A DNA stretch of 64,000 nucleotides. Origin: Sulfurimonas sp. (GTDB taxonomy: Bacteria > Campylobacterota > Campylobacteria > Campylobacterales > Sulfurimonadaceae). Position numbers and translations under genes: made by a program. Under the pieces are notes generated by a model. It did no database searches. It saw only the letters and a program-made list of their open reading frames with translations, and was not told where the DNA came from. The first letter of the stretch is position 1; each line of letters opens with the position of its first letter. Shown here piece by piece: positions 7,992 to 41,813 of the stretch. Where the stretch lies: NCBI RefSeq assembly GCF_028694895.1, contig NZ_JAQVKA010000002.1, positions 2,963 to 66,962 of the forward strand, written 5' to 3'.

Positions 7992-9460
7992 TTAGAAGTT
8001 ATCAAAAAGAGCTCCTTTGGCTCTTTAGTATCTTTATCTTTAAGATAGCCATTCTTATCATGTTGCCTCTTACGGGCGATGAAGCCTACTTTATAAAGTG
8101 GGGTAACAATTTATCCTTTGGCTATTATGATCACCCTCCAATGGTTGGCTGGATAATATATCTGATGAGCTTCCTTAGCGATTCGCATATCTTCTTTAGA
8201 CTCTTTGCAGTCGTTACAACTTTTGTAACTGCTTATGTTATCTATAAAATAGCCCTACTCTACCATGTACAAAAGCATAAAGCCGCTCTTGTCTCATTTA
8301 TCTTCTTAGCTTCTCCTATCGATGTGCTGCTGGTACTTATGACAAACGATGTAGCCCTACTTTTCTTTAGCTCGCTTGGAACTCTTTTCTTTTTATACTC
8401 ACTAGAGAGAGGACGTTTATCTTACGCTATCTTGGCTGGTCTTTTTTTAGGAGCTGCATTTTTAAGTAAATATTTCGCTGTTTTTTTAATGATATCTCTA
8501 CTTCTTTTCTCGTTTTATATATATGGTCGCAAAGCCCTAAAGAGCGTACTTATCGTCGCATTTATCGTCTCTGTTTTCATTGCTCAAAACCTCTACTTTA
8601 ACTATAACAGTTGCTGGAATAACATACTCTTTAATTTCTTTGCAAGAACACAGAGTAGTAGCTATAACATCGGCTCTGTCTTAGGATATTTTGGACTTAT
8701 TTTATATATACTAACCCCTTGGGGACTCTACTATTTGTACAAAACAAAGTTTAGTAAAAACAATCTTTTAAAGCTTCTTATATCAATACTAAGCGTTGCA
8801 TTTTTTATCTTTTTTATAGTCTCTTTAAAGAACAATATAGGCCTTCACTGGTTTTTGATATTTGTACCATATATCTTTTTGCTCTTTACTTTTATGGATG
8901 ATAAGCATCTAAAAAAACTACTCAAATATAATGTTATATTTACCTCTGTTCATATTATTATCTTGATGAGTATTTTAAACACTCCTCCATCACTTCTTAG
9001 CGAGCATAAAAAATACTCTGACATTGTTATGTATACCCAGCCAGAGGTTTTATGTAAAAAGCTTGAAATCTTTGATGATGAGAAGATTTTTACACTTGGT
9101 TACTCAACTGCGTCTCTTCTTTCTCACTACTGCAAAAGAGAGGTATATACCATCTTTAACAACTCAAAATACGGACGTATGGATGATAAACTCTTAGATG
9201 TAAGAACTCTAGAGGGCAAAGATATCACCATCTTTAACAAAAGCCCTATAAAAAAAGAGCAACTACAAAGTGTATGTTCTTCATCTGAACTTAGCAGTTT
9301 CGAGCTAAATGATGCAACTTTTTACACTGCAAAATGTAGAGATTTCAACTATGATGAGTATAAAAAACTATATCTTGAGTATCAAAATAAGCACTTTTAC
9401 AACATCCCTTCGTGGCTTCCACTTGGGAAATGCTACTTTAAAGAGAGGTATTTTAATTGA
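7988..9460 (+). CDS. GT-C fold glycosyltransferase (ArnT/PMT family 39/83-like), polyprenyl-phosphate-sugar dependent
   Basis: 490 aa. About 10 or more TM helices followed by a soluble C-terminal domain. N-terminal loop motif GDEAYF, typical of the ArnT/PMT catalytic Asp-Glu. Confidence 0.7.
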   Translation: MIRSYQKELLWLFSIFIFKIAILIMLPLTGDEAYFIKWGNNLSFGYYDHPPMVGWIIYLMSFLSDSHIFFRLFAVVTTFVTAYVIYKIALLYHVQKHKAALVSFIFLASPIDVLLVLMTNDVALLFFSSLGTLFFLYSLERGRLSYAILAGLFLGAAFLSKYFAVFLMISLLLFSFYIYGRKALKSVLIVAFIVSVFIAQNLYFNYNSCWNNILFNFFARTQSSSYNIGSVLGYFGLILYILTPWGLYYLYKTKFSKNNLLKLLISILSVAFFIFFIVSLKNNIGLHWFLIFVPYIFLLFTFMDDKHLKKLLKYNVIFTSVHIIILMSILNTPPSLLSEHKKYSDIVMYTQPEVLCKKLEIFDDEKIFTLGYSTASLLSHYCKREVYTIFNNSKYGRMDDKLLDVRTLEGKDITIFNKSPIKKEQLQSVCSSSELSSFELNDATFYTAKCRDFNYDEYKKLYLEYQNKHFYNIPSWLPLGKCYFKERYFN

Positions 9461-10035
9461 ATCTAGCCTTATTTGATTTTGATGGAACACTAACTACAAA
9501 AGACTCTTTAGATGAGTTTTTAAGATACAGCGTTGGCAAAAATAGATACCTACTAAACATGCTCAAATTCATTCCTAATTTTGCTCTTTGGAAATTAAGA
9601 TTTATATCAAACTCAAAAGCAAAAGAACGTTTATTTGAGATATTTTTCAAAGGCATGGACGAGGCACTATTTCGAGCTAAAGCAAAAAGTTTTTCTCTAT
9701 ATAAACTTGACTCAATCATAAATGAGCAGAGAATGAACATCCTTAAAGAACATCAACAGAGCAACACAAGAGTAGTAATAGTCTCAGCTTCTATGAAGTG
9801 TTGGTTAGAGCCATGGTGTAGAAAAAATGATATTGAACTTCTATCCACTGAACTAAAGTTTGAAGATGGCAAATACAGTGGCAAATTTTTAACCCCAAAC
9901 TGCCATGGACAAGAGAAAACCAATCGCATAAAAGAGTATCTAAATCTTGATGAGTATGAGACTATTTATGCATACGGAGATAGCTCTGGAGATATGCAGA
10001 TGCTGGCTATGGCACACTTCCCAACAAAGTACTAA
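9457..10035 (+). CDS. HAD-IB family hydrolase/phosphatase
   Basis: 192 aa with a TTG start overlapping the upstream stop. HAD motif I DFDGTLT and motif IV GDSSGD. Confidence 0.8.
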   Translation: MNLALFDFDGTLTTKDSLDEFLRYSVGKNRYLLNMLKFIPNFALWKLRFISNSKAKERLFEIFFKGMDEALFRAKAKSFSLYKLDSIINEQRMNILKEHQQSNTRVVIVSASMKCWLEPWCRKNDIELLSTELKFEDGKYSGKFLTPNCHGQEKTNRIKEYLNLDEYETIYAYGDSSGDMQMLAMAHFPTKY

Positions 10036-10049
10036 TTAAAAATCTAATG

Positions 10050-10066
10050 GGCTAATAACTTTAGCC
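10050..10066 (+). terminator. hairpin after the HAD gene (GGCTAA-taact-TTAGCC) followed by a T-rich tract
   Basis: 6-bp perfect stem 15 nt after the stop codon. The downstream sequence ttgttaatcttatttgttt is T-rich. Confidence 0.4.
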
Positions 10067-10302
10067 TTGTTAATCTTATTTGTTTAAGCTACATCGTGTT
10101 TGTTATGTAGTTTTTTCAACAATTAACAAACACTTTTGTATGTTATTTCTCCATATGACATTTAACACACACTAAATATTTAAGAATAATAAGTATATTT
10201 TCTCCTAAAGTTAAAAAATATTGTAATTTGTCATATTTTTCATCAAATTTTAATAATTAACACACATTTAACATGTAAGTTATTTTTATTTTTTTAAGTT
10301 GG

Positions 10303-10314
10303 TGTGTATATAAT
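10303..10314 (+). promoter_or_regulatory. promoter-like element (TGTGTATATAAT) 16 nt upstream of the first cassette boundary
   Basis: TATAAT at 10309-10314 preceded by TG repeats. It is the only obvious -10 box upstream of cassettes 1 and 2, and neither cassette has a comparable box of its own. Confidence 0.35.
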
Positions 10315-10342
10315 GTGTTTGAATAAATAGTTATGTGAAGGA

Positions 10343-10846
10343 ATGAATATGCATGAAGAAAAATCTGTACAAGAAATGATGTCTGCTTTAGGAATGGCTA
10401 CATTTCAGGCACAAGCACTTGAATATTCACTTGTTACATTGCATGCAGTTACAGTCCGAAAGAATGAAAAACCAGAAAAGAATATCATTCAAGATCTAAT
10501 GGATACGCGATACAAGCAAACCTTAGGACGACTGATAACAGATGCGTTTAAAACGCTTGATATACCTATTTCATTACAAGAAAAATTAAAAAATGCCTTA
10601 GAAAAAAGAAACTGGGTTACACATCACTTTTTTCGTAAATATGGTGCGATTGTATTTAATGTAGAGCTTCAAAAAAAAGTAACGCAAGAACTTATTGATA
10701 TTTGGTTATTTTTAGAAACTGTATGTGACGCCATACATGAATTGTCAGTACAAAGACTAAAAGATACTGGAAAGTCAGAAGTTGAAATCAATAAAGGCAT
10801 AGAAGAAGCAGTAAACAAGTATCTAAATGAATTAGCAAACACATAA
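10343..10846 (+). CDS. hypothetical protein, cassette 1; HEPN-like candidate (Rx4H motif)
   Basis: 167 aa with a sequence pattern that looks all-helical. R89-N-W-V-T-H94 (nt 10607-10624) fits the HEPN Rx4-6H catalytic motif and follows a TLGRLI...L...L helix pattern. GAAGGA ribosome-binding site. The ORF starts 7 nt after the cassette boundary box. Confidence 0.35.
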   Translation: MNMHEEKSVQEMMSALGMATFQAQALEYSLVTLHAVTVRKNEKPEKNIIQDLMDTRYKQTLGRLITDAFKTLDIPISLQEKLKNALEKRNWVTHHFFRKYGAIVFNVELQKKVTQELIDIWLFLETVCDAIHELSVQRLKDTGKSEVEINKGIEEAVNKYLNELANT

Positions 10847-10910
10847 CAAGTACGAGGAGACCAATAATTTACCCTAGCGGGAAAATTATTGCTCACGACA
10901 AACGTTGTAC
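10841..10910 (+). repeat. attC-like recombination site 1 (70 bp)
   Basis: ACATAAC-15 nt-AATAATTTACCC-TAGC-GGGAAAATTATT-13 nt-GTTGTAC. The 5' box overlaps the stop codon (10844-10846). The 12-bp apical stem has one A/A mismatch. The flanking arms pair only with bulges. Confidence 0.6.
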
Positions 10911-10927
10911 TATAAAAGGAACACTAA

Positions 10928-12328
10928 ATGATAAATAATTTTTATAGTGATATATTTCAAGTAAAACCTTCAGATTTAAAAACATATGATGTTTTCAATG
11001 GCTTTATCAATAAAGATTCACTTTATTATATAGTTCCTAGTGAACTTGAAAATATTCAAATAACAGAATTTAAAAAATCTTATTCTAAATACAAATTATT
11101 TTTTGAAAACATTATTAAGTTATTAGACAACTCAAATGGAAATGATAGGCTATATAGACAAGTTGAAAAATTATTTAGATTACATGAAGTAGGACATATA
11201 GGTTTGGGCTATTCAGAAAATAGCAAAAAAGGTTCTGGTATTGGTCCAAAATTAGCAGAAAAATTAACTCAGACTGCTTATGAACTTGTAAAAGTTGGAA
11301 TCAAAGATCCTGAAGTATTTCATTTGGTTGGATTACTTGAAGAAGGAATAGGTGCAGATAGAATTAGCGATATAACAGTTGCTATATTATTAGATGATTT
11401 TTTAACTTATACACAAAATGTATCTTTAAAATTAAAAATTAAAACGAATAAGTTCTCGTATAATAAAATTGACTATGCAATCCCTTTTTATCAAGATAAT
11501 CCAATAATATTTTGTCCAAAATCACTATTAACAGATTTACCAGTTGCTCTTGATTCAGAAGATATAAGTACTGTATGTTCTCATAATGAAGACTTACGAA
11601 ATAAAGCAAATCAGATTATTGCAGATGGTTTTTCCCAAGGCACGGTTAACTCTAAATTATATAAACAAAATTTAAAGTCACTCATACTTGCTAATCCTAA
11701 ACTTGTTCAAGAAGCTATAGCTACATATAAAGATAAAAGTACTTTTTATGATTTTGATAAAGACCCAAATGGAGATTTTATTTGGAAAGAGATAGCAGAA
11801 AATAGTATCAACAAGTATCCTTTACAGTTAGACAATAATAAAAAGCCTATTGAAATAGTAAATGATATATGTAATAAATTTCAAGATATGGTTGAAAATA
11901 ATGGACTTTGGAAGTTTTTTCATAATAGTGATGGGACACATAAAAATGAAACATTTTCACAATTACTATTTTTTGCAATAGCTCATTCATATTGCGAAAC
12001 TAATAACTTAGACTTAAGTCCAGAATCAGATGCAGGGAGAGGTCCTGTTGACTTTAAAATCAGCCAAGGCTTTAATGATAAAATAAATGTTGAAATTAAA
12101 CTTTCCACTAACAGATTATTGCATGGATTTCAAACTCAATTACCAATATATGATAAAGCAGAAAAAACTAATAAAAGTATTTTTTTAATTATTCAACTAT
12201 ACGATAGGCATGACAAGCAAATAAAAAAGGTGTTTGACTATAAAAATAAACATGAAACAGTAGATAAAAAACTTCCAAACATAGTAGTTATTGACGCTAC
12301 AAAAAAGATGTCAGCAAGTAAGTCGTAA
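10928..12328 (+). CDS. hypothetical protein, cassette 2; C-terminal RecB/Cas4-type PD-(D/E)xK nuclease domain, with an N-terminal region of about 330 aa of unknown function
   Basis: 466 aa. Ordered motif set: E341, GPVD375F, VE389-I-K391 and Q404-LPI-Y408 (nt 11948-12151). This is the nuclease core D...(D/E)xK...QxxxY. I recognise no family for the N-terminal two thirds. Confidence 0.5.
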   Translation: MINNFYSDIFQVKPSDLKTYDVFNGFINKDSLYYIVPSELENIQITEFKKSYSKYKLFFENIIKLLDNSNGNDRLYRQVEKLFRLHEVGHIGLGYSENSKKGSGIGPKLAEKLTQTAYELVKVGIKDPEVFHLVGLLEEGIGADRISDITVAILLDDFLTYTQNVSLKLKIKTNKFSYNKIDYAIPFYQDNPIIFCPKSLLTDLPVALDSEDISTVCSHNEDLRNKANQIIADGFSQGTVNSKLYKQNLKSLILANPKLVQEAIATYKDKSTFYDFDKDPNGDFIWKEIAENSINKYPLQLDNNKKPIEIVNDICNKFQDMVENNGLWKFFHNSDGTHKNETFSQLLFFAIAHSYCETNNLDLSPESDAGRGPVDFKISQGFNDKINVEIKLSTNRLLHGFQTQLPIYDKAEKTNKSIFLIIQLYDRHDKQIKKVFDYKNKHETVDKKLPNIVVIDATKKMSASKS

Positions 12329-12330
12329 AA

Positions 12331-12398
12331 GTACAACAAAACATAGTAGTCAATAAATTACCTAGCGGCAATTTATTGACTATATTCAAACGTTATAC
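12331..12398 (+). repeat. attC-like recombination site 2 (68 bp)
   Basis: GTACAAC-9 nt-TAGTCAATAAATTACC-TAGC-GGCAATTTATTGACTA-9 nt-GTTATAC. Starts 3 nt after the stop codon. Shares with site 1 the CC-TAGC-GG apex, the unpaired A next to the apex and the CAAACGTT(G/A)TAC 3' end. One stem pair covaries relative to site 1. Confidence 0.6.
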
Positions 12399-12412: not shown

Positions 12413-12421
12413 TGCTATAAT
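12413..12421 (+). promoter_or_regulatory. extended -10 promoter candidate (TGCTATAAT) internal to cassette 3
   Basis: Perfect TGnTATAAT 21 nt upstream of the antitoxin ATG. GGAAAG ribosome-binding site. Confidence 0.45.
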
Positions 12422-12441: not shown

Positions 12442-12630
12442 ATGGTAGCTGTAAAACAAGAAGCACAAGATATGATTCAAAATCTTCCTGACAACTGTAC
12501 ATATGAAGATATTCAGTATCATCTTTATGTTGTAGAAAAAATCAAAAATGGCATTAATCGTGCAGAAAATGGTGAAGTCTCATCTCATCAAGACGCAAAA
12601 GAAAGAATGGCTAAATGGCTATCAAACTAG
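12442..12630 (+). CDS. putative antitoxin, partner of the downstream RelE/ParE toxin
   Basis: 62 aa acidic protein. Overlaps the toxin ORF by 16 nt, which is the classic type II TA arrangement. Confidence 0.6.
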   Translation: MVAVKQEAQDMIQNLPDNCTYEDIQYHLYVVEKIKNGINRAENGEVSSHQDAKERMAKWLSN

Positions 12631-12926
12631 AGTGGTCAGAAGAAGCTCTTGAAGATATCGAATCTATTGCTATTTACATAGAAAAAGATTCGCCTGCGTA
12701 TGCAAAGTCCGTTGTTTCAAAGTTTTTTGAAAAAGCGGAGATTTTAAAAAAATTTTCTTCCCTTGGACGCAAAGTTCCTGAACTTAATGATAATAACATT
12801 CGTGAAATATTTGTTTATAGCTATAGACTGATTTACAAAATAGATGAAAATGCAGTTTTATTTGTAGCCATAATACATGGTAAAAGACTTCTTGAAAATC
12901 ACCAAAATATATCTAACAAAACATAG
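12615..12926 (+). CDS. type II toxin-antitoxin system RelE/ParE family toxin
   Basis: 103 aa. Typical ParE/RelE pattern: WSEEALEDIESIAIYIEKDSPAYA...GRKVPEL...IREIFVYSYRLIYKI...VLFVAIIHGKR. Confidence 0.8.
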   Translation: MAIKLEWSEEALEDIESIAIYIEKDSPAYAKSVVSKFFEKAEILKKFSSLGRKVPELNDNNIREIFVYSYRLIYKIDENAVLFVAIIHGKRLLENHQNISNKT

Positions 12927-12929
12927 CAG
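12911..12929 (+). repeat. remnant of attC-like site 3 (5' box and spacer only)
   Basis: ATCTAAC fits RYYYAAC. The following AAAACATAGCAG matches the corresponding part of site 2 (AAAACATAGTAG). The stem, apex and 3' box are missing, and the sequence runs straight into a truncated antitoxin gene. Confidence 0.45.
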
Positions 12930-12934
12930 CTGAT

Positions 12935-13150
12935 GTGTTGAAGCATATAAACGAAACACACCGACCGATGATAATCACACAAAATGGTGAAGCCAAGGCT
13001 GTTATCCAAGATCCAAAAAGTTATGAAGACATGAAAAATGCAATTTCTATTTTAAAGCTTCTTTCTTTTGCAGAAGAAGATATTAAAAACGGAAACCTTC
13101 ATGATGAAGAAGATGTCTTTAGTTCTGTAGAAGAACTACTTAAAAAATGA
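12935..13150 (+). pseudogene. Phd/YefM family antitoxin, N-terminally truncated (about 15-20 aa missing)
   Basis: 71 aa from a GTG codon. INETHRPMIITQNGEAKAVIQDPKSYEDM aligns with the middle of YefM/Phd proteins. The usual N-terminal beta-strand and helix are absent, and the break coincides with the attC remnant. Confidence 0.6.
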
Positions 13151-13371
13151 ATAAAACGTATAAACTTCAATGGACTATAAATGCAAAAAATGACCTTTTA
13201 AATATTGTTGATTACATTAAAAAAGATAGCCCTCATATAGCTAATGAGATTTATTTAAAAATTAGAGCTAAAGCCAAATCGAGCAATTTTTTCCCTTTAA
13301 AAAGTCGTATTGTACCTGAACTTCAAAAAGATAGTTATTGAGCATATCAAAAATATAGACTCATTTCGTAG
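13147..13371 (+). pseudogene. RelE/ParE family toxin remnant (premature stop, C-terminal part lost)
   Basis: The 64-aa ORF resembles the N-terminal 60% of the intact toxin at 12615 (KKDSPHIANEIY...SRIVPELQ). A TGA falls at 13339-13341. The same frame continues as AYQKYRLIS, which recalls the conserved YRLIY strand, and then hits TAG. Confidence 0.6.
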
Positions 13372-13420
13372 TGTAGATAACAAATCAAAAACGGGCTAAT
13401 CAAACTCTTTACATTTTTTT

Positions 13421-13463: not shown

Positions 13464-14522
13464 ATGATAAGTTATCAAAGCATAAAACCTTGGCTGTTTA
13501 AACTTGATCCTGAAAATGCTCACATGTTAGCAGAGGTAGCACTCAGAGTGCCAAATATTTGTCAAGTAGCCTTTAACCCATTTTTAGAGTCTCACTTCAT
13601 AACAAACCCTATCCTAAAACAAGAGCTTTTTGGTCGTACATTTTTTAACCCAATCGGCCTTGGCGCTGGTTTTGACAAAAATGCAACCATGATTCGTGGT
13701 ATTCAGATTTTAGGTTTTGGCTTTACTGAGGTTGGAACTATCACACCAAAAGCTCAAGCTGGAAACCCAAAACCTAGAATGTTTCGTCATATTGAAGAGC
13801 AAAGTATCCAAAATGCGATGGGCTTTAACAATGAGGGACTTATAAGTGCTCAAAAAAGGTTAAAAAAAAGATTTCCATTTACTACTCCTATTGGCATAAA
13901 CATTGGAAAAAATAAACTCACTCCAGATGCTCAAGCTATAAATGACTACACAACTCTTATTAAATCACTTCATGAGTTAGGAGATTATTTAGTCATAAAC
14001 ATCTCATCTCCTAACACTCCCGGTCTTCGTGATTTGCAAAATGAGGAGTTTATTACGAAACTTTTTAAAGAGGCAAAAGCACTAACTTCAAAGCCAATTT
14101 TGTTAAAAATAGCGCCTGATATGAGTAAAGAAGATGCCGTTACACTAGCAAAACTTGCAGTTAAAAATGGTGCTGATGGTATTATCGCAACAAACACTAC
14201 TGTTGATTACTCGCTTGTAAAAGAGCCAAAGAGTTTTGGTGGTTTAAGCGGAGCGGTTTTAAGTGAGAAAAGTTTTGAGATCTTTGAAGCAATAGCAAAA
14301 GAGCTTTATGGCAAAACAACTCTTATCTCTGTAGGTGGCGTATCATCTGCCGCGGAGGCTTATAGACGCATCAAGGCTGGAGCATCACTCATCCAGATAT
14401 ATAGCGCGCTTATCTTTGGCGGCCCAGATTTAGTAAAAAACATAAACAACGAGCTTACAGAGCTTATCAAAGCTGATGGATATACAAATATCACTGAGGC
14501 TATAGGTGCAGATAGAAAATAG
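13464..14522 (+). CDS. pyrD: dihydroorotate dehydrogenase (quinone), class 2
   Basis: 352 aa. Motifs GLGAGFDKN, NISSPNTPGLR and GGVSS, plus the N-terminal extension typical of membrane-associated class 2 enzymes. Confidence 0.95.
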   Translation: MISYQSIKPWLFKLDPENAHMLAEVALRVPNICQVAFNPFLESHFITNPILKQELFGRTFFNPIGLGAGFDKNATMIRGIQILGFGFTEVGTITPKAQAGNPKPRMFRHIEEQSIQNAMGFNNEGLISAQKRLKKRFPFTTPIGINIGKNKLTPDAQAINDYTTLIKSLHELGDYLVINISSPNTPGLRDLQNEEFITKLFKEAKALTSKPILLKIAPDMSKEDAVTLAKLAVKNGADGIIATNTTVDYSLVKEPKSFGGLSGAVLSEKSFEIFEAIAKELYGKTTLISVGGVSSAAEAYRRIKAGASLIQIYSALIFGGPDLVKNINNELTELIKADGYTNITEAIGADRK

Positions 14523-40990: not shown

Positions 40991-41813
40991 ATGCTCTCTT
41001 TTGCCATTGGATGACAAACCTCCAATGTCTCTTTTAAATCTTGTTTTTGTATATGCGTATATATTTGCGTACTTAGAAGTGAAGAGTGTCCTAGTAACTC
41101 TTGAACAACTCTTAAATCTGCTCCACCAGCAATTAACGCTGTAGCGTATGAATGCCTAAGAACATGAGGAGAGACTCCTAGTATTTTTGAGTTATCTTAT
41201 ATGCAGATATTCTACTAAGCCTATCGCCCTTGTAGTTCTGCCAAACATACTCTTTTGTTTTATCGAGTTCATTAAGATAAGCGTCAACAGCTACTTTAGC
41301 GATAGAAGCGATTGGAACGATACGCTCTTTCTCGCCCTTTGCATGTCTTATATAAAGCCACTCACCCTCAATATCTTCTTTGCTTAATGCTAGACATTCA
41401 CTAATCCTTGCTCCTGTTGCATATAAAAAAATTATTATAGCATAGTCTCTAAGGCCTATAATTGTGCTTCTATCAATCAAAGATAGAGCATTTTGTATCT
41501 CTTGATATGAAAGAAACTTTGGAAGCAGTTTTGAGATTTTAGAAAATTTTAGTTTTTTCTTCTCATCTACAAATTGATTTTTATAACAAAAATCAAAAAA
41601 AGCGTTTACTGAGGATAGTTTTCTATTGAGAGTTCTTTTGTTTTTGTATTGGCTTAAAAGATTAAAAAGGGTTTTTGAATCTAATGAAATCAGCGGCTTA
41701 TTTAGAGATAATTCTATCTGTTCTAAATCACTTCTATAAGCATCAACGCTTCTCTTACTAAGAGCTTTTATAACGCTTATATACTCTATAAAAGCCTCTA
41801 ACTCGTTTGACAT
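40987..41813 (-). pseudogene. Xer-type tyrosine recombinase interrupted by a 1-nt frameshift
   Basis: The N-terminal ORF (41178-41813) has the SAM-like core-binding domain and the ATGARISE Arg. The catalytic C-terminus ([13 protein letters not shown]...[14 protein letters not shown]) continues in another frame down to the stop at 40987-40989. The two frames meet at a T5 run at 41184-41188 (A5 on the coding strand). Confidence 0.75.

Follow-up and report, generated by a model that had tools for sequence, protein, structure and literature searches.

Two adjacent nuclease-like genes of Sulfurimonas as probable independent cassettes in a partly decayed integron-type array

We analysed a 64-kb stretch of a Sulfurimonas sp. 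genome (contig NZ_JAQVKA010000002.1; the whole stretch is hereafter called the window) in which two genes for nuclease-like proteins, here named A (10343-10846, + strand) and B (10928-12328, + strand), lie head to tail with a spacer of 81 nt. This layout is as given in the original prediction, which had asked whether the two genes form one two-component defence module or a chance juxtaposition of two single-gene cassettes. We find that A and B are very probably two independent, promoterless single-gene cassettes of the integron type, which have become neighbours by chance in a partly decayed array of the CALIN class (clusters of attC sites lacking an integron integrase) located in the gap between the genes for a HAD hydrolase and for PyrD. 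Gene A encodes 167 aa as called and has no Pfam family; gene B encodes 466 aa and belongs to a family defined by DUF8370 and DUF8371. Three sets of observations speak for the cassette reading: both genes show the anatomy of cassettes, each of them moves independently of the other, and the two do not co-occur in any of the 110 other loci that carry one or the other.

Cassette anatomy and boundaries

attC sites are imperfect palindromes of about 55-140 nt that follow an open reading frame (ORF); their boxes R'' and R' read RYYYAAC and GTTRRRY, and the crossover falls between G and TT (G/TT). The 70-nt repeat that follows gene A (attC1, 10841-10910, + strand) has the R'' box ACATAAC at 10841 and the R' box GTTGTAC at 10904, along with an unpaired spacer, a GAG/CTC box with a 2-nt bulge and an imperfect hairpin of 9+3 bp. 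A second copy of 68 nt follows gene B (attC2, 12331-12398, + strand), with GTACAAC as R'', a 13+2-bp hairpin and GTTATAC as R'. Both strands of the two repeats fold far better than their shuffled counterparts (z = -4.1 to -7.1): as bottom-strand DNA, attC1 reaches z-scores of -5.4 to -5.8 and attC2 of -6.6 to -7.1. The attC-like site that had been proposed at 10841-10910 is, by its anatomy and by the breakpoints described below, an attC-type site, beyond what chance would produce. The stop codons of A and of a ParE toxin gene further down the array sit within the R'' box of their respective repeats. On its other side, cassette B opens with a leader (TTGTACTATAAAAGGAACACTAA, 10905-10927, + strand) of only 23 nt, which holds an AAGGAA ribosome site and no space for a promoter of its own; hence, B relies on transcription from upstream, like any cassette.

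A profile of the repeat recovered further copies solely beside relatives of A or B (L008, L009, L010/L011, L029 and L110-L113). Their stems vary on both sides (A-T to T-A, A-T to G-C): for instance, CAATAATTT/AAATTATTG is replaced by CAATATTTT/AAAATATTG or AAATAGTTT/AAACTATT, and the homologue of attC1 that follows the closest relative of A (89% identical, L010/L011) shows compensatory stem changes. Six members of the family fold with z = -3.8 to -6.6, with the R boxes paired in the centroid structures of two of them (attC2 and the L029 copy). RNAalifold run on a MAFFT alignment of the copies yielded a poor consensus, the arms being out of register by one column; the repeats were therefore read directly and folded one by one.

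The edges of the cassettes are visible in metagenomes. We compared the window with Logan contigs from four unrelated metagenomes, landfill and soil among them, and found the genes at a depth of about 10, attC1 at 28-273, attC2 at up to 182 (X1) and the region 10016-10323 at 55-216, with depth going up 3- to 27-fold at the attC sites. Contigs break at 10306 and at 10870-10877, while unrelated sequence starts before 10843/10844 and 12335 and after 10906 and 12395, i.e. at the starts of the R'' boxes or just beyond the GTT of the R' boxes. A 702-nt contig from a wastewater metatranscriptome (X26), encoding a B relative of 92% identity, diverges exactly at 10904; the contigs from RNA libraries represent relatives of B only, and not this locus. 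These boundary positions match the G/TT crossover expected of integron recombination.

One might instead regard the repeats as some other lineage-specific intergenic palindrome, such as a terminator or an element resembling repetitive extragenic palindromes, in an otherwise ordinary defence island, in which case A and B would still be independent of each other. We consider this improbable. Such a reading would sit well with the lack of an integron integrase (IntI) in the window and near the copies of the repeat family in the fetched Campylobacterota loci, with the imperfect core boxes, with the result that an Rfam search of the island gave no match, and with one arm that scored as terminator-like on the minus strand. 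It does not account for the inverted AAC/GTT cores, which enclose an unpaired spacer and a stem with a bulge and are paired in two of six sites, or for the finding of one site behind each co-oriented gene, with breakpoints at GTT and a stop codon that lies within R''. Moreover, one homologue of A is a bona fide first cassette beside IntI (see below), the toxin-antitoxin cassettes are as in chromosomal integrons, and for Sulfurimonas autotrophica IntegronFinder is reported to have detected In0 as well as CALIN elements (PMC10295459, Table 1).

Neighbourhoods of the two genes in other genomes

A comparison with other loci is the test that the original prediction had set. We assembled 23 other A loci, among which about 11 distinct contexts have 370 nt or more of downstream sequence, and for B another 87 loci (83 plus 4), and scanned all ORFs with hidden Markov models of both families; for the 23 A loci and 83 of the B loci a broad profile of the A superfamily was also used at E<=1. 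The two genes occur together in none of the 23 A loci and in none of the 87 B loci, the window being the only place where both are found. By the criterion of the original prediction, the outcome is clearly in favour of two cassettes that became neighbours by chance, and the idea of a genuine two-gene system finds no counterpart in these loci.

Relatives of A are found in diverse settings. The 89%-identical version retains the homologue of attC1, which is followed by an antisense CBS gene. Elsewhere (L005/L006) a homologue of A is the first cassette beside a divergent integrase, which carries the IntI-specific ALERKY...W.W insert, and the cores there are the canonical GCCTAAC and GTT. In a further case (L004) A is part of a cassette-like array with APH, methyltransferase, Gp49/HTH and DUF4440 genes, and it is also seen after mutS (L017-L019), by an IS3-type transposase (L016) and by an RHH/PemK pair (L015).

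The same holds for B, whose family is far larger (more than 607 clusters, with 400 matches in species-representative genomes from many phyla). In L110/L111 a 91%-identical B starts from the same leader behind GTTGTAC, is followed by a homologue of attC2 and is preceded by a PDC-S14 (DUF4357) cassette; an 85%-identical one (L008) is preceded by a PDC-S32/AbiJ-like cassette. The leader after GTTGTAC is identical in L008 and L110-L112, with upstream cassettes that vary among the four arrays. A 74%-identical B (L009) keeps attC2, has neither an attC nor an A upstream, and occurs on its own, flanked by a rhodanese gene and others. The more distant relatives of B lie within or next to type I restriction-modification (R-M) systems in about 10 of the 83 loci and show no conserved partner. 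Thus, as the cassette alternative of the original prediction would have it, each gene takes its own attC along into differing neighbourhoods.

We also considered a module in which A and B, as RNase and DNase effectors, would be co-transcribed and act together, the hairpin between them being merely an intercistronic regulatory or terminator element. The shared orientation, the short spacer, the lack of a promoter for B, the nuclease-type motifs of both proteins and a similar contig depth of A and B in the four metagenomes would all agree with this. Against it stand the 110 loci without co-occurrence, the closest homologues of each gene, which lie beside other genes, and the nature of the hairpin, which belongs to a family of repeats broken at GTT and accompanies the gene that precedes it. 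Genuine two-gene units of the same arrays provide a control: neither the antitoxin-ParE cassette of the window nor a unit made up of a 380-aa protein and PycTM (L110; spacer of 3 nt) has an attC between its two genes. We therefore regard the two-component module as very improbable.

Several points nevertheless weigh against our conclusion that A and B are independent cassettes. The sample of the A family is small. The similar depth of A and B contigs suggests that the pair is stable in this lineage, and a recently evolved functional interplay of the two may exist. At the attC cores AAC and GTT are exact, while the degenerate positions of RYYYAAC/GTTRRRY are off at 1-2 bases, and the assignment as attC was made from anatomy and breakpoints and not with the IntegronFinder attC model. 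Certain contig joints (e.g. 10335>10841 and 10906>12335), on sides of 30-39 nt, are hints only and were not relied upon, since the intervening sequence is marked 'between: not known'. Finally, a tblastn search of the 64-kb window with a bona fide IntI (L006) detected no integron integrase, which makes the array a CALIN-type one and not a complete integron. The sole tyrosine recombinase in the window, at a distance of 30 kb (41020-41813, - strand), is Xer-like, interrupted by a frameshift and devoid of the IntI-specific insert; its 211-aa N-terminal ORF spans 41178-41813 and the catalytic HxLRH...Y part lies in another frame at 41041-41178, so that this XerC/D-like gene is either a pseudogene or the product of an assembly error.

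Some further features of the B neighbourhoods deserve mention. The R-M loci with B among or beside hsdM, hsdS and hsdR are L028, L030, L033, L040, L042, L088, L092, L095, L096 and L102. The array at 224-4460 of L110 comprises PDC-S14, B and then the cassette with the 380-aa protein and the PycTM-type 2TM effector, and this last pair may be a variant cyclic-nucleotide signalling system. In three Campylobacterota loci (L008:3088-4512, L032:6341-8001 and L027:1-228) a protein of about 475 aa without a family match adjoins B; it is downstream of B in L008 and upstream, as two ORFs abutting B, in L032. This protein, possibly a partner of B that is specific to the lineage, has no match in PADLOC and does not occur in the window. 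We also tried the notion that a HEPN gene before B is a recurring theme and rejected it, as hhalign of A against the AbiJ-like protein of L008 gave a probability of 1.7%.

The upstream module and the two proteins

Upstream of A lies a non-coding segment of about 250 nt (10085-10336, + strand) that we infer to be a portable promoter or attI-like platform. Its left end abuts the leftmost junction of the array, the GTT of GTTTAAGC at 10082-10084 (+ strand), a putative recombination point before which (at 10082/10084) contigs of X3, X4 and X25 are unrelated to the window. At its right end is a core-like GTTATGT (10330-10336), and after 10334/10335 contigs of X4 and X25 carry unrelated sequence. 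The module contains internal direct repeats of the AATTAACAcACA type at about 10120, 10160 and 10255 and is 5-20 times deeper than its flanks in the metagenomes; length variants of it are indicated by joints at 10185>10278 and 10191>10265, which are hints only. The last 75 nt of the module (10260-10332 recurs) are also found upstream of the B homologue in L009, where they are followed by GTTGTAC.

The promoter that A and B had been proposed to share at 10303-10314 falls into this module. The element TGTGTATATAAT is present at these positions and includes a -10-like TATAAT (10309-10314) preceded by a T-rich tract, and TATAAT and its flanks are conserved in the L009 copy of the module, so that the module lends the proposed promoter partial support; a promoter consensus scan of this AT-rich region, on the other hand, gave no excess over shuffles (24 vs 21.2). 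Co-transcription of A and B from the TATAAT of the module (10309) is thus plausible, yet generic: a shared promoter is a property of cassette arrays at large and does not speak for a coupling of the two genes.

Put together, the array runs from the promoter/attI-like module through cassettes A and B to a toxin-antitoxin cassette with ParE, and closes with what is left of a truncated Phd-ParE pair; A and B each comprise a short leader, a single ORF and an attC of their own. The cassettes would have been inserted by an integron integrase acting in trans, and the adjacency of A and B would be the outcome of site-specific insertion or shuffling at the G/TT cores and not of selection for a joint function. 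Both genes would probably be transcribed from the promoter of the module by read-through of attC1, with attenuation at that site. A role of A and B in defence is suggested by the company that they and their relatives keep, namely PDC-S14, PDC-S32, PDC-S05, PycTM, type I R-M and toxin-antitoxin genes.

As to the proteins themselves, the start of A is likely the second ATG of the called frame, at 10349, which we favour on account of the homologue length of 165 aa and the good spacing from GAAGGAA at 10337. The protein carries the motif R89-N90-W-V-T-H94 (R-N-x3-H), with a polar residue after the arginine as in the Rx4-6H motif of HEPN domains. Among 66 diverse relatives that are 20-41% identical to A, G17, R89 and N90 are invariant, H94 is conserved in at least 90%, and Q24, E27, T60, G62, L86, H94 and G143 are near-invariant; this conservation identifies R-N-x3-H as the signature of the family. 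The close homologues of A form 15 clusters, and its superfamily has 1,364 representatives at E<=0.001; a search for A in viral contigs found none. The predicted model is all-helical, with six helices and a predicted local distance difference test (pLDDT) score of 81.

The earlier view of A as HEPN-like holds at the level of motifs and of transitive profile evidence. While A itself has no match in Pfam, NCBIfam or PADLOC, weak matches were obtained for a number of the 66 relatives: five to HepT-like models (best 5.4e-5), three to DUF4145 and one each to HEPN_LA2681 and HEPN_Apea; in PADLOC, three relatives of A weakly match Cas13-ApeA. The fold search did not bear it out: Foldseek of the A model against the PDB returned nothing at E<=0.001, with the HEPN-MNT chain 7bxo_F coming up only at E=1 and a template modelling (TM) score of 0.23-0.28, and when the PDB was searched by sequence with profiles of A and B, nothing but designed helical repeats and noise came up. 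We therefore describe A as HEPN-like and not as an established member of the clan. Judging from motifs, A would most likely work on its own as an RNase effector of the HEPN type. Certain members of the superfamily (e.g. those of 468 and 331 aa) carry additional domains; in one relative of A this is a SEFIR/TIR domain (PADLOC bSEFIR, 5.8e-48), so that the A domain is part of a known defence architecture.

The assignment of B to the DUF8370 (PF28123) plus DUF8371 (PF28130) family was made on a 100%-identical protein (P0016) and on 120 of 120 listed homologues; a local Pfam copy, which is without the models of these two families, gave no match to B. In the C-terminal domain of B, E341, D375, E389-x-K391 and Q404xxxY408 do not vary among 20 sequences with identities as low as 41%. 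The model places these motifs, in a confident region, on a helix (341-358), two strands (374-378 and 384-392) and a further helix (397-411), giving an alpha-beta-beta-alpha-beta core. This set of motifs is that of the RecB/Cas4 type as described by Aravind and colleagues. The proposal that B is a PD-(D/E)xK nuclease is hence supported by motifs and by secondary structure, which point to a RecB-like C-terminal domain; the fold search did not confirm it, as the best PDB matches of whole-chain B in Foldseek were Kpn2I (E=0.27), Nt.BspD6I (0.48) and MspJI (2.1), none of them significant. The N-terminal part of B matches the PADLOC candidate PDC-M36A in 18 of 20 members, partially and over residues 66-202. 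B is most likely a self-contained nuclease, predicted to be a DNase, in which an N-terminal sensing or binding region would be coupled to the RecB-like PD-(D/E)xK domain, a type of protein known from defence islands.

The island and comparison with known systems

The array fills a 3.4-kb stretch between the HAD-hydrolase gene (9457-10035) and pyrD (13464-14522), with all genes on the + strand and a G+C content of 0.28 in a window that is itself AT-rich (0.34); by gene, the values are 0.32 for A vs 0.27 for B. Downstream of B comes a toxin-antitoxin cassette (12442-12926, + strand) with a candidate antitoxin of 62 aa (12442-12630) overlapping the ParE toxin (12615-12926) and its own TATAAT at 12416. 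It ends in a truncated third attC (AACAAAACATAGCAGC, 12915-12932, + strand), of which the first 16-18 nt after ParE remain, joined to the middle of a Phd gene; AACAAAACATAG is found in the window at 12335 and 12915 only. The decayed cassette that follows (12935-13341, + strand) holds a truncated Phd/YefM (12935-13150), which has lost its N-terminus (profile positions 17-64 of 74) and is fused to the truncated attC, and a truncated ParE (13147-13341), which has lost its C-terminal third (profile positions 2-53 of 89).

The genes flanking the array are syntenic with S. denitrificans DSM 1251, to whose PyrD the product of pyrD is 91% identical. Homology to that genome stops near 10042 on the left side and restarts at 13395 on the right. 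An 8-bp direct repeat, GGGCTAAT, occurs in the window only at these two edges of the island, at 10049-10056 (+ strand), within a hairpin after the HAD gene, and at 13393-13400 (+ strand), and may reflect duplication of a target site or a scar left by recombination. A joint at 10002>13395 is recorded in X1 at the right edge, again as a hint only. In S. denitrificans DSM 1251 (L108, CP000153.1, 1285006-1300064) the gap between the HAD gene and pyrD holds genes for an alpha/beta hydrolase and a heavy-metal P-type ATPase in place of the array, and a sequence like the start of attC2, AAAACATAGTAG, is present just ahead of the shared region upstream of pyrD. The gap is a hotspot of variation. When other genomic contexts of the HAD protein were looked up, nothing was on record.

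What these observations mean for the study of the two genes is that A and B are not to be annotated or investigated as a two-component system, each being testable alone. The pair itself is ordinary. To call it new biology whichever way the question was answered was too generous, because single-gene phage-defence cassettes of integrons (bacteriophage resistance integron cassettes, BRiCs) are already an established pattern (Kieffer et al., bioRxiv 10.1101/2024.07.02.601719). The remaining interest is in the HEPN-like family, in the nuclease hypothesis for DUF8370/DUF8371 and in the portable promoter module. The first is a HEPN-type family that current models do not cover and that occurs as an integron cassette, including beside a real integrase; the second provides the first functional hypothesis for a widespread family, as a RecB-like nuclease often found in type I R-M loci; and the third, along with the attC family, offers a means of finding cassettes in Sulfurimonas and its relatives, whose integron biology is little described. 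A bolder and decidedly tentative extension is that Sulfurimonas-like Campylobacterota keep a lineage-specific, integron-type bank of defence cassettes, in which attC sites of a 68-70-nt family would carry candidate anti-phage genes (A as a new HEPN family, B as a DUF8370/DUF8371 RecB-like nuclease, PDC-S14, PDC-S32, PDC-S05 and the PycTM pair), the promoter/attI-like module would be portable and placed at several chromosomal spots with no integrase beside it, and the integrase would act in trans. If this were true, A and B would each be a new single-gene defence effector.

At the level of the proteins, A resembles the HEPN RNases (HepT-like, Apea-like, LA2681-like and DUF4145) in being small and all-helical with R-N-x3-H, and differs from them in that their models do not match it and in having no adjoining MNT-type antitoxin or conserved partner; to the solved HEPN structures its predicted structure has no significant match. 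B shares with the RecB-like/Cas4-like branch of PD-(D/E)xK nucleases the motifs GxxD, ExK and QxxxY in this order, and departs from it in its N-terminal DUF8370/DUF8371 region of about 330 aa, which has no known function. With regard to PDC-M36A, the match to B is partial and no second PDC-M36 component was seen. The position of B among or next to hsd genes in about 10 of 83 loci recalls the PrrC and RloC nucleases of type I R-M loci, although B has no sequence relation to these and is not beside an R-M system in the window. PrrC, for its part, is an anticodon RNase with an ABC-ATPase domain, in contrast to the DNase-type motifs of B.

At the level of the array, A and B are akin to the BRiCs in being small defence-type genes that come as single cassettes, can be joined into arrays and occur outside integrons as well; they differ in that they are known from their genes alone and in being chromosomal, environmental cassettes, unlike those of the mobile class 1 integrons. 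Compared with CALIN elements and sedentary chromosomal integrons, the array of the window is distinguished by its two complete attC sites and a stump, by the absence of intI within the 64 kb, by the repeated module of about 250 nt at its head, which is also found elsewhere (L009) without an integrase, and by its Campylobacterota host, a group from which few integrons have been described. It shares with them the co-oriented, mostly promoterless single-ORF cassettes, each followed by an attC-type palindrome of 68-70 nt, attC sites that are alike within the lineage as the Vibrio repeats are, self-promoted toxin-antitoxin cassettes, variable neighbours and a decayed far end.

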